Position numbers and translations under genes: made by a program. A model generated the notes under the pieces. That model was not told where the DNA came from and did no database searches. It saw only the letters and a program-made list of their open reading frames with translations. Shown here in pieces: positions 185 through 1,039 of a stretch of DNA of 64,000 bases (position 1 is the first letter of the stretch; each line of letters begins with the position of its first letter). Source of the stretch: Collinsella sp. (lineage in GTDB: Bacteria; Actinomycetota; Coriobacteriia; Coriobacteriales; Coriobacteriaceae); contig JAGZQF010000009.1 in NCBI GenBank assembly GCA_018382295.1, forward strand, positions 7,618 to 71,617. Reading direction: 5' to 3'.

Positions 185-1039
185 TTACTGAAATGCAAGA
201 ACCACTGCCACGACAATGCAGGCAATGCCCAATACGAGAGGCAGCGATACCTTCTTTTCCCAGTCTTTAACAAGGAAAGTCTCGATTGCGGATGCAAGAA
301 TCAGAAAACCGCCAATAATCAGCAGGTCGAGTGCAACAAAGTTGACGGTTGTTATATTGGAGGACAGACCTCCGGCGTTGACGTTTACGAGCGTAAAGAT
401 CGCGGCGAAAATGGCGAAGAGGGCCAAGACGTTGCCATAGATACGTGACTCGATATTGGCGATTTCTTTCTTTTTGTCCTCGACCTTTTTAAGTTCTCCG
501 GCATAGACGTCGGAATAATCTGCAAGTCCGTTAAAGTTGAGCTCATCAGAGAAAGCGCCGTGGTAAGGATGGGCCACCATGCCATCAACGTGCTGGAATG
601 CAACCTGCGCTATACCCTTAGACTTATCGAGCGTAATAGTGTTACCGCTTACGTTTGTAACACGGTAGAACAGCCGCGTTCCATGCCCGGGGAAATATAG
701 CGGCGCATCCAAAGAAAGCCCCTGGCGAATGCGCGAATTGCGTAGAAGCACGCTCGCGGTCAAATCGTTTGGCAACGCAACACATTCAACGCAAGAGACG
801 AATGTCGAATCTCCGGGGCCAAGCTCTACCTCGGATTGCTTGCTTTCGTTGATGTAGAATCCCTCGGTGCGCAAGTCATACGTAACCTGTCCGATGTTCG
901 GAGCATCGGCATTGAGAAGCACCTTGCTGTCGATTAGCTCCTGAATCTTAGTATCGCTCAAGTACATACGAACCACTTCCTTAGGCCTCCGAGTATAGCA
1001 CCAAGGCATAGCAACAGTGACCGCCCCCAAAGGGGACAT
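185..1039 (-). CDS. dCTP deaminase / dUTPase-fold domain protein with 2-3 C-terminal transmembrane helices (unusual architecture; catalytic status uncertain)
   Basis: The N-terminal ~170 aa align by eye to Dcd: MYLSDTKIQELI resembles the Dcd N-terminus, and ELGPGDSTFVSCVECVALPNDL...PGHGTRLFYRVTNVSG resembles the Dcd PGWSG...LEFYNSG region. In that alignment the Glu of LEF corresponds to Arg here. The C-terminal ~90 aa are strongly hydrophobic (IYGNVLALFAIFAAIFTLV, FVALDLLIIGGFLILASAI, LPLVLGIACIVVAVVLAF). GC is lower than the core genes. Confidence 0.5.
   Translation of the reverse strand: MSPLGAVTVAMPWCYTRRPKEVVRMYLSDTKIQELIDSKVLLNADAPNIGQVTYDLRTEGFYINESKQSEVELGPGDSTFVSCVECVALPNDLTASVLLRNSRIRQGLSLDAPLYFPGHGTRLFYRVTNVSGNTITLDKSKGIAQVAFQHVDGMVAHPYHGAFSDELNFNGLADYSDVYAGELKKVEDKKKEIANIESRIYGNVLALFAIFAAIFTLVNVNAGGLSSNITTVNFVALDLLIIGGFLILASAIETFLVKDWEKKVSLPLVLGIACIVVAVVLAFQ

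Follow-up and report, generated by a model that had tools for sequence, protein, structure and literature searches.

A mobile membrane protein of Collinsella with a degenerate dCTP deaminase/dUTPase-fold domain, a candidate single-gene sensor-effector of phage conflict

The stretch of Collinsella DNA analysed here, 64,000 nucleotides (nt) of contig JAGZQF010000009.1 and hereafter called the window, carries close to its first position a minus-strand gene (185..967) for a protein of 260 amino acids (aa). In this protein a catalytically degenerate domain of the dCTP deaminase (Dcd)/dUTPase fold is followed by three predicted transmembrane (TM) helices, and we therefore call it Dcd-TM. Our results show that Dcd-TM is a mobile single gene without a conserved partner, found at accessory sites of prophages and in a defence island. 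We read it as a single-gene sensor-effector of prophages and defence islands that takes part in phage-host conflict, either by phage exclusion or by abortive infection, and assign this reading a probability of about 45%.

The N-terminal domain (residues 1–140; 548..967, minus strand) was assigned from Pfam, a profile search of the PDB, a structural model with Foldseek comparisons, and its selection pattern. Against Pfam PF22769 (DCD, dCTP deaminase-like) the protein scored 34.4 bits, above the gathering score of 27, and the same domain is precomputed on its homologues. A phmmer search of the PDB retrieved Dcd-type dUTPases and DCD-DUT enzymes (8y1w at 3e-8), and a profile of the whole family matched PDB entries at E 2.5e-17 across the entire domain (positions 1–145). 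An AlphaFold2 monomer model, computed with 20 homologues as input, reached a predicted local distance difference test score (pLDDT) of ~90 for residues 1–130. Foldseek matched this model to Dcd, DCD-DUT and dUTPase structures of the PDB exclusively. The best match was again 8y1w, the dUTPase of Thermococcus pacificus, with a target-normalised TM-score of 0.81 and an rmsd of 1.9 Å. In a Foldseek search of the predicted viral structures of BFVD, the N-terminal domain alone found matches. Homology of this domain to the Dcd/dUTPase fold is thus far above chance, and the fold proposed in the preliminary description, which had aligned the sequence with Dcd by eye, is confirmed by the Pfam score and by the model. 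The score against the NCBIfam model dCTP_deam (TIGR02274) was 48.3 bits, which is below the equivalog cut-off of 92.8 and only about half of it.

In enzymes of this fold, Glu138 (E. coli Dcd numbering) is the catalytic residue of deamination, while an aspartate serves in sugar binding and in the activation of water during dUTP hydrolysis. A MAFFT alignment with E. coli K-12 Dcd placed S111, S112, R115, D128, W131, E138 and Y171 of the enzyme opposite N77, S78, R81, F92, H95, R102 and Y135 of Dcd-TM, respectively. The HMMER alignment to the DCD-DUT of B. halodurans, in which TLELFN stands opposite LFYRVTN, gave the same Glu/Arg and Asp/Phe pairs. Together with PDB chains and a census of the family, the MAFFT alignment defines a remodelled active-site block at residues 74–106 (LRNSRIRQGLSLDAPLYFPGHGTRLFYRVTN; 650..748, minus strand). 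The census covered 185 full-length relatives that have the PG...N block. At the Glu138 position it found Arg in 181 of the 185, Lys in 2, Cys in 1 and Ser in 1, and Glu in none; at the Asp128 position it found Phe in 118, Gln in 49 and other residues in 17, but never Asp. Ser111 is replaced by Asn throughout the family, and the equivalents of Arg115, Ser112 and Tyr171 are retained. Hence, R115 (R81) is the sole survivor of the dCTP deaminase triad Glu138/Ser111/Arg115. The motif III Asp that serves as a criterion for trimeric dUTPases, equivalent to D128 of Dcd, is F92 here, and their Gly-rich motif V arm is not visible after PYHGAFSDE, where a low-confidence linker and a charged helix follow instead. 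Because both Glu138 and Asp128 are replaced, neither known chemistry of the fold is expected. Judging by its sequence, the protein is therefore neither a dCTP deaminase nor a dUTPase, although it is a member of the PF22769 superfamily. The preliminary description had suspected that the catalytic Glu was replaced by Arg, and this holds for nearly every member; it had overlooked that the equivalents of Asp128 and Ser111 are lost as well.

The altered pocket is under strong constraint. Conservation along the protein peaks in block 74–106, with 2.9 bits per column, and the domain as a whole shows the strongest purifying selection (dN/dS = 0.07). Residues D31, N77, S78, R81, G83, P89, Y91, P93, G94, H95, T97, R102, N105, Y135 and E142 are near-invariant even at ~30% identity. 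The phosphate-binding elements are kept (Arg/Lys76, Ser78, Arg81 and Tyr135), and the set of replacements is equally invariant (Arg102, Asn77, Phe/Gln92, His95 and Thr97). The pocket is constrained and remodelled, and is not that of a decaying enzyme. Such strong constraint on a degenerate pocket favours ligand binding or another specific function over decay. Since the phosphate-binding residues are kept while those for deamination and sugar binding are replaced by an invariant set, we read the pocket as a putative sensor of a nucleotide or nucleotide-like ligand rather than as an enzyme. Speculatively, Arg in the place of the cytosine-directed Glu would favour a base that bears a carbonyl group, such as U, T or a modified base. 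The family is publicly named either 'hypothetical protein' or 'deoxycytidine triphosphate deaminase', and the label 'dCTP deaminase' is wrong for it. A housekeeping Dcd was likewise rejected on the catalytic residues, the profile score and the mobility of the gene.

The Dcd-fold domain is joined to the membrane part by a linker of low model confidence (residues 141–155; 503..547, minus strand), which follows a conserved PYxGxF(x)xE element. In this region Y135 is conserved in 98% and E142 in 92% of the family, and the pLDDT is below 50 for residues 135–155. Next comes a long helix recognised from the model and from hydropathy (residues 156–202; 362..502, minus strand; IYGNVLALFAIFAAIFTLVNVN), a charged stalk that is continuous with TM1. 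Provisionally, we take the charged part in front of TM1 to be a putative coiled-coil stalk. Hydrophobic segments, defined by a Kyte-Doolittle mean of at least 1.6 over 19 residues, cover residues 176–200, 205–233 and 238–260. They coincide with the model helices 156–202, 207–232 and 242–259, and are also present in the aligned family representatives. Three predicted TM helices thus follow the Dcd-fold domain, at the C-terminal end where the preliminary description had placed its membrane helices.

Conservation differs among these helices. TM1 (IYxNVLxLMxIFxxIFSLxNxN) has 2.6 bits per column, compared with an average of 2.19 for the Dcd-like domain. TM2 (residues 207–232; 272..349, minus strand) carries a conserved intramembrane Asp/Asn, which is D214 in the Collinsella clade and Asn in ~90% of the family. 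TM3 (residues 241–260; 188..247, minus strand) is poorly conserved and is preceded by a loop rich in Lys and Arg. The mean count of K+R is 2.8 in this TM2-TM3 loop, against a D+E of 0.65, and 1.0 in the TM1-TM2 loop. Because the TM2-TM3 loop is K/R-rich, the predicted topology is N-in and C-out. The TM part gave nothing significant in Pfam or NCBIfam (HlyIII at E 0.6, bfi2 at E 0.095), and a PDB profile search returned just a weak compositional match to VPH2 (E 3.8e-4). A known channel, holin or immunity protein was rejected for the TM part, as no significant match was found in Pfam, NCBIfam, PDB or BFVD.

The helix and TM region was also searched alone (alignment A5), with word-indexed protein searches that are non-exhaustive, so that the module may have further fusion partners. 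Besides fragments of the Dcd-TM family itself, this search retrieved a distinct architecture of ~185–205 aa, in which a winged helix-turn-helix domain (wHTH; Pfam matches to TrmB, HTH_5 or HTH_24) is followed by a charged helix and two TM helices. The wHTH-TM protein P0350 and the Dcd-TM protein P0194 are 37% identical over 102 aa; 19 of the 20 residues of TM1 are identical, and the Asn of TM2 is conserved in the wHTH-TM family too. A reciprocal search of 5.8 billion proteins retrieved, beyond the ~25 clusters of the wHTH family itself, Dcd-TM proteins only. Two diverged wHTH-TM proteins, P0350 and P0364 (70% identical to each other), have their genes in type I restriction-modification (R-M) operons, flanked by hsdS and hsdR, and a third, P0359, lies within a phage structural region. 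From sequence comparison, the helix-TM module appears exchangeable between two cytosolic domains of 'sensor' type, both of which occur in defence or phage settings; this second family had escaped the preliminary description. The wHTH-TM genes may be accessory defence or membrane-tethering genes associated with R-M systems. They were seen on metagenome contigs at L136 8001–8618 and, in L137–L139 and L141–L142, at 7001–7564; a 62-aa open reading frame (ORF) follows the wHTH-TM gene in L136–L139.

The listed minus-strand ORF, 185..1039, has 284 aa. Its true start is most likely Met25 (ATG at 965–967), which gives the 260-aa protein and leaves the first 24 codons probably untranslated; the stop codon is at 185–187. 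We preferred Met25 because a Shine-Dalgarno sequence and an extended -10 element lie upstream of it, and because homologues of ~260 aa begin at the same MxLxD. Nearly all homologues, from many sources, have this length and these first residues. The start assumed in the preliminary description is therefore 24 codons too far upstream. The putative expression signals, at 976..1000 on the minus strand, were read by eye and lie inside the over-long 284-aa ORF. They comprise the Shine-Dalgarno sequence AAGGAAG (976–982) and the extended -10 element TGCTATACT (992–1000). No complete sigma-70 promoter was recognised at 976..1000 in a consensus scan, so that the promoter there is a putative one. On the other side of the gene, ~56 nt past the stop codon, lies a terminator-like hairpin (96..129, minus strand) with a perfect 15-bp stem and a 4-nt loop, followed by AUCUUUG. 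The RNA of 80–190 on the minus strand folds at -45.1 kcal/mol (z -4.8), and none of 200 shuffled sequences was equally stable. This hairpin is not in the list of the consensus terminator scan, which missed it because its U-tract is weak.

Across the whole gene dN/dS is 0.09 (691 pairs), which signifies purifying selection, and 185–967 is a genuine gene. The first 1 kb of the window has a G+C content (GC) of 0.49, compared with 0.60–0.70 across most of the window. The gene resembles a moron in that its GC is low and that it seems to have a promoter and a terminator to itself. Both the lower GC and the separate hairpin terminator had been noticed in the preliminary description, and our measurements agree with it on these points.

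The family was delimited by a profile search of 1.84 billion cluster representatives (clusters at 50% identity), which found 155 clusters at E <= 1e-30 and 370 at E <= 1e-10. Among the 150 matches listed, the full-length proteins have ~250–300 aa and the same architecture, and the remainder are shorter fragments. This architecture is kept in representatives down to ~27% identity. The hosts are Gram-positive gut bacteria and their phages. Matches in genomes were almost all from Collinsella, with a few from Bifidobacterium and other Coriobacteriia. In addition, 33 viral contigs of IMG/VR, with GC from 0.28 to 0.69, carry relatives. A tblastn search of 50,697 annotated phage genomes (INPHARED) found none.

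Some viral copies have decayed. In the IMG/VR contig L128 the gene (8001–8816) is split into ORFs of 103 and 164 aa, and L129–L133 hold five identical 157-aa forms that are truncated just before the helix and TM module. A search of plasmids gave distant Dcd-like matches only. One plasmid protein, encoded on Agrobacterium rubi plasmid NZ_CP049209.1 (16740–17666; L015 4992–5918), has a second and independent membrane-anchored Dcd-like architecture: its 308 aa comprise a Dcd-like domain (with VEPGYEG, and Leu as the equivalent of Glu138), coiled-coil segments and a single TM helix. Its gene is followed by genes for a SAM methyltransferase and an adenylosuccinate-synthetase-like protein.

To compare neighbourhoods, 130 copies were grouped into 38 distinct contexts. 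Among the two nearest ORFs on each side we found 7–8 tyrosine integrases, 2 serine recombinases, at least 5 large and small terminases, 3 repressors and 2 holin or endolysin genes, together with Abi_2/AbiD, a retron-type-XI reverse transcriptase-protease, PDC-S13 and PDC-S25. In unrelated prophages the gene lies between the replication module and the terminase (L007, L096, L098, L099, L119, L126 and L127). Elsewhere it lies beside the integrase (L113, L116 and L134), or after a Hol44 holin gene at the end of the prophage (L104–L111). Such positions are the usual sites of the accessory genes ('morons') of temperate phages. The neighbourhood survey that the preliminary description had proposed thus revealed a largely phage-borne family, which that description had overlooked, and the contexts found are in keeping with its broader suggestion that a dUTPase-fold domain for nucleotide binding serves in a membrane sensor or effector.

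Possible partners were sought in the 38 contexts by an all-against-all comparison of every ORF with 35 aa or more that lies up to 900 nt away from the gene on either side. The integrase was the sole recurrent adjacent gene (7 of the 38 contexts). A conserved small partner ORF or antitoxin was therefore rejected, as integrases alone recur. A separate observation concerns L001, the Collinsella-related genome with P0008. Here, and also in L002 and L003, we noticed a gene for a fusion of a reverse transcriptase with a trypsin-like protease (558 aa; L001 11677–13353, minus strand), which in L001 lies downstream of Dcd-TM at a distance of ~0.9 kb. The fusion protein matches RT-Protease_XI of PADLOC (retron type XI) with an E-value of 1.6e-134, and SatD/DUF3307 and HD-domain genes are next to its gene.

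The Collinsella copies sit where an exopolysaccharide cluster ends. On one side the gene is flanked by hypervariable DNA, with 153 distinct neighbour gene clusters at 73 loci. Among the 138 clusters scanned there were matches to GajA (Gabija), AriA-like proteins, AbiLi, AbiD, AbiH, Old and PtuA (Septu), as well as to reverse transcriptases, TIR, SMODS, CAP12-TIR and the YobI-ATPase; a retron and parts of CBASS are thereby represented in the island. The SMODS gene was seen once, as variable cargo of the island. The hot spot, observed in loci L017–L095, corresponds to the side at ~1000–8000 of the window and to the region left of the window (see L010). The opposite side holds MNT, Fic, DUF3990 and DUF3825 genes.

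The window itself has two neighbours of interest on this flank. A gene for a CHAT protein of 340 aa lies at 2516–3538 on the plus strand; its CHAT domain is borderline, with 24.7 bits against a gathering score of 24, and its N-terminal coiled coil (residues 1–134) matches the PADLOC candidate PDC-S66 at E 2e-13. Between this gene and the Dcd-TM gene, on the minus strand at 1165–2292, lies a gene for a 375-aa LPxTG protein, which is rich in Ala, Gly and Thr, carries an LPKTG sortase signal as well as a hydrophobic anchor at its C-terminus, and has no Pfam match. The preliminary description had the Dcd-TM gene adjoin the CHAT gene. Yet the LPxTG gene intervenes, and the CHAT gene is one of many alternative cargos: its site holds AbiH in L011 and many other systems in other loci. 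The CHAT protease was rejected as a functional partner on these grounds, and its proximity to Dcd-TM is coincidental. In 64 of 93 loci the immediate upstream neighbour of the Dcd-TM gene is the LPxTG gene, and these 64 are without exception syntenic Collinsella loci. The LPxTG gene was likewise rejected as a partner, because the pairing is confined to syntenic Collinsella and absent in distant homologues. Further along, at ~6000–11000, GC falls to 0.38–0.42 in a genome of 0.60–0.70, and this stretch looks horizontally acquired. It contains exopolysaccharide genes, including those for a glycosyltransferase (6079–7317) and a Wzx-like flippase (7337–8767).

If Dcd-TM is indeed a sensor-effector, it might work as follows. 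By analogy with its relatives, the Dcd-fold domain would probably be homotrimeric, with ligand pockets at the subunit interfaces; to our knowledge, every characterised member of the Dcd/dUTPase fold is a homotrimer. The flexible linker and the long helix would couple this domain to TM1, TM2 and the variable TM3. Infection could alter the occupancy of the pockets, for instance through a perturbed or modified pool of deoxynucleoside triphosphates (dNTPs), and this change would be relayed through the stalk to the TM1 bundle of the TM1/TM2 module. The module would then either permeabilise or depolarise the membrane, causing abortive infection, or stop the entry of DNA, causing superinfection exclusion. 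Either outcome would shield the lysogen or the host population. In a more detailed version Dcd-TM would be a nucleotide-gated membrane pore, probably trimeric, on a dUTPase-fold pseudoenzyme, which would read the (d)NTP pool (dUTP, dTTP or phage-modified dNTPs) and collapse the membrane potential so that infection is aborted; in this full form we consider the proposal doubtful.

Several points weigh against a sensor-effector of phage conflict. The defence role is one of guilt by association, because no PADLOC-DB 2.0 model matched the protein at E <= 1 and no description of the fusion was found in the literature searched. These same results, with the uninformative public names, agree with the preliminary description, whose author knew of no such family. 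The context association consists of raw counts, and the Collinsella copies, which are 90–98% identical and share one syntenic site, amount to one context and not 73. The contexts are also compatible with a role that benefits the phage, such as lysis timing or anti-defence, and the four contexts that border exopolysaccharide clusters could hint at a different role. The identity of the ligand as a dNTP is uncertain, since the sugar-binding Asp128 is lost. Finally, polar positions are scarce in the strongly hydrophobic TM helices, and a simple anchor would fit such helices too.

An anchor is the essence of one rival explanation, in which Dcd-TM is a passive, membrane-tethered exclusion factor. 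The TM helices would then anchor the protein or target a host component of DNA entry, and the Dcd-like domain would be a trimerisation scaffold or a protein-binding surface, with no sensing and no pore. This would suit the very hydrophobic TM helices and the position of the gene, which adjoins integrase and repressor genes in several prophages; the integrase/repressor side is the classical site of Gram-positive superinfection-exclusion genes (Sie2009, Ltp). Membrane tethering could just as well be the task of the wHTH relatives in type I R-M operons. However, the former active site is the most conserved part of the protein and under the strongest purifying selection, neither of which a scaffold needs, and the near-identity of TM1 across two families goes beyond the needs of an anchor. 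We regard a purely passive factor as rather unlikely. The conservation of the pocket might instead be explained by a protein that is still an enzyme, namely a membrane-tethered nucleotide hydrolase or modifier with a re-invented catalytic set (His95, Arg102, Tyr91, Thr97 and Asp31). Such an enzyme could reshape the dNTP pool or, in anti-defence, destroy a host signal nucleotide. The invariant polar residues of the pocket (D31, N77, R81, Y91, H95, T97 and R102) are in line with this explanation, as is the best phage-family match, which is the PHROG 'dCTP deaminase'. So is the position at the end of the phage early/replication region, where phage dUTPase genes are commonly found. Yet every member lacks both residues on which the fold's two known chemistries depend, and it would be unexplained why a pool enzyme needs a stalk and three TM helices. 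Moreover, lone copies persist in islands that are not of phage origin, and the membrane module is shared with a domain of DNA-binding type and not with enzymes. We therefore find an active enzyme improbable.

Two further explanations start from particular neighbours. A phage lysis-timing protein, similar to a holin, antiholin or pinholin, might couple lysis to the nucleotide state through its cytoplasmic domain. A Hol44-type holin gene stands immediately before the Dcd-TM gene in L104–L111, 2 contexts have endolysin or amidase genes as neighbours, and the layout of three TM helices resembles that of class I holins. But most contexts are not lysis cassettes, with lysis genes nearby in only ~2 of the 38, and the copies next to a holin gene lie beyond that gene, close to the integrase at the end of the prophage. 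Chromosomal islands devoid of phage genes have lone copies that are maintained by purifying selection, and a protein of 260 aa with a cytoplasmic N-terminus is unlike holins, which are small (<150 aa) and encoded beside the endolysin. A role in lysis timing thus has little probability. Least probable of all, in our view, is a protein that binds a nucleotide sugar at the membrane and assists in the synthesis of surface polysaccharides. The exopolysaccharide or capsule clusters at whose ends the four contexts lie bring the gene next to those for an NAD-dependent epimerase, EpsG or Wzz, and one copy and the epimerase gene share 10 nt. Nevertheless, no single family of glycosyltransferases or epimerases accompanies the gene from context to context, most of the distinct contexts are prophages, and the end of the Collinsella exopolysaccharide cluster is itself a hypervariable defence island.

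If the sensor-effector reading is correct, single-gene systems of phage defence or exclusion would gain a new sensor fold in a dead dCTP deaminase/dUTPase, and nucleotide pools could be sensed directly, without a dedicated signal synthase. The membrane effector module would also be new, and shared with proteins in type I R-M operons. If Dcd-TM is in fact a pore, it would be the first dUTPase-fold immune sensor and, in its logic, a counterpart of trimeric ligand-gated channels. The annotation also needs correction, as it is wrong to count this family among the nucleotide-metabolism genes of gut Actinobacteria, Firmicutes and phages. In Collinsella, an abundant genus of the human gut, the gene marks a hot spot of defence islands that is useful for mining systems.

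Compared to the Dcd, DCD-DUT and Dcd-type archaeal dUTPase structures (1xs1, 4xjc, 2qxx, 8y1w, 9ln0), the Collinsella protein has the same fold and domain boundaries, and also the RxS...R.G phosphate loop, the PG turn and the C-terminal PY element. It differs from these enzymes by ~120 additional residues, which form the linker, the long helix and the three TM helices, and its gene is mobile and phage-borne, unlike that of a housekeeping Dcd. Catalytically inactive relatives of dUTPases are known from herpesviruses, where HCMV pp71/UL82 and gammaherpesvirus ORF10 keep the dUTPase fold for non-catalytic roles in regulation or in interaction with the host; these are soluble proteins of eukaryotic viruses. 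The 'moonlighting' phage dUTPases derepress SaPI islands, although the staphylococcal phage Dut is still an active enzyme. We know of none among these viral proteins that is fused to TM helices or belongs to the Dcd branch. The inactive ones are nevertheless a conceptual precedent.

The preliminary description had likened Dcd-TM to anti-phage dCTP deaminases, but this likeness is one of name only, because the fold of DcdV/AvcD is unrelated to Dcd/dUTPase. DcdV/AvcD, like the deaminase of Tal et al., shares with Dcd-TM no more than a substrate name and the general theme of immunity based on nucleotide pools. It is a soluble and active enzyme with a Zn-dependent cytidine-deaminase fold (HAE...PCxxC) and an N-terminal P-loop kinase domain, and both the HAE...PCxxC motif and the kinase domain are absent from the 260-aa protein. 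The wHTH-TM proteins (P0350 and P0364 families) are closer relatives in the membrane, with a homologous helix, TM1 and TM2. They have a wHTH instead of the Dcd fold and two TM helices instead of three, and are likewise uncharacterised. Similar in architectural logic are Pycsar PycTM, the CBASS 2TM/4TM effectors and the CARF/SAVED-TM proteins of type III CRISPR systems such as Cam1, in which a cytosolic nucleotide-binding domain is combined with a few TM helices, and which are found in defence islands and prophages. In contrast to Dcd-TM, which has no conserved partner in its 38 contexts, these effectors are always co-encoded with a cyclase or Cas10, and their sensor folds are cNMP-binding, SAVED or CARF rather than Dcd/dUTPase. 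In domain architecture Dcd-TM resembles these signal-activated TM effectors, its ligand binding being predicted. Conflict genes that combine a sensor and a membrane effector in a single protein are known, and by this comparison the sensor fold and the effector module of Dcd-TM would both be new.

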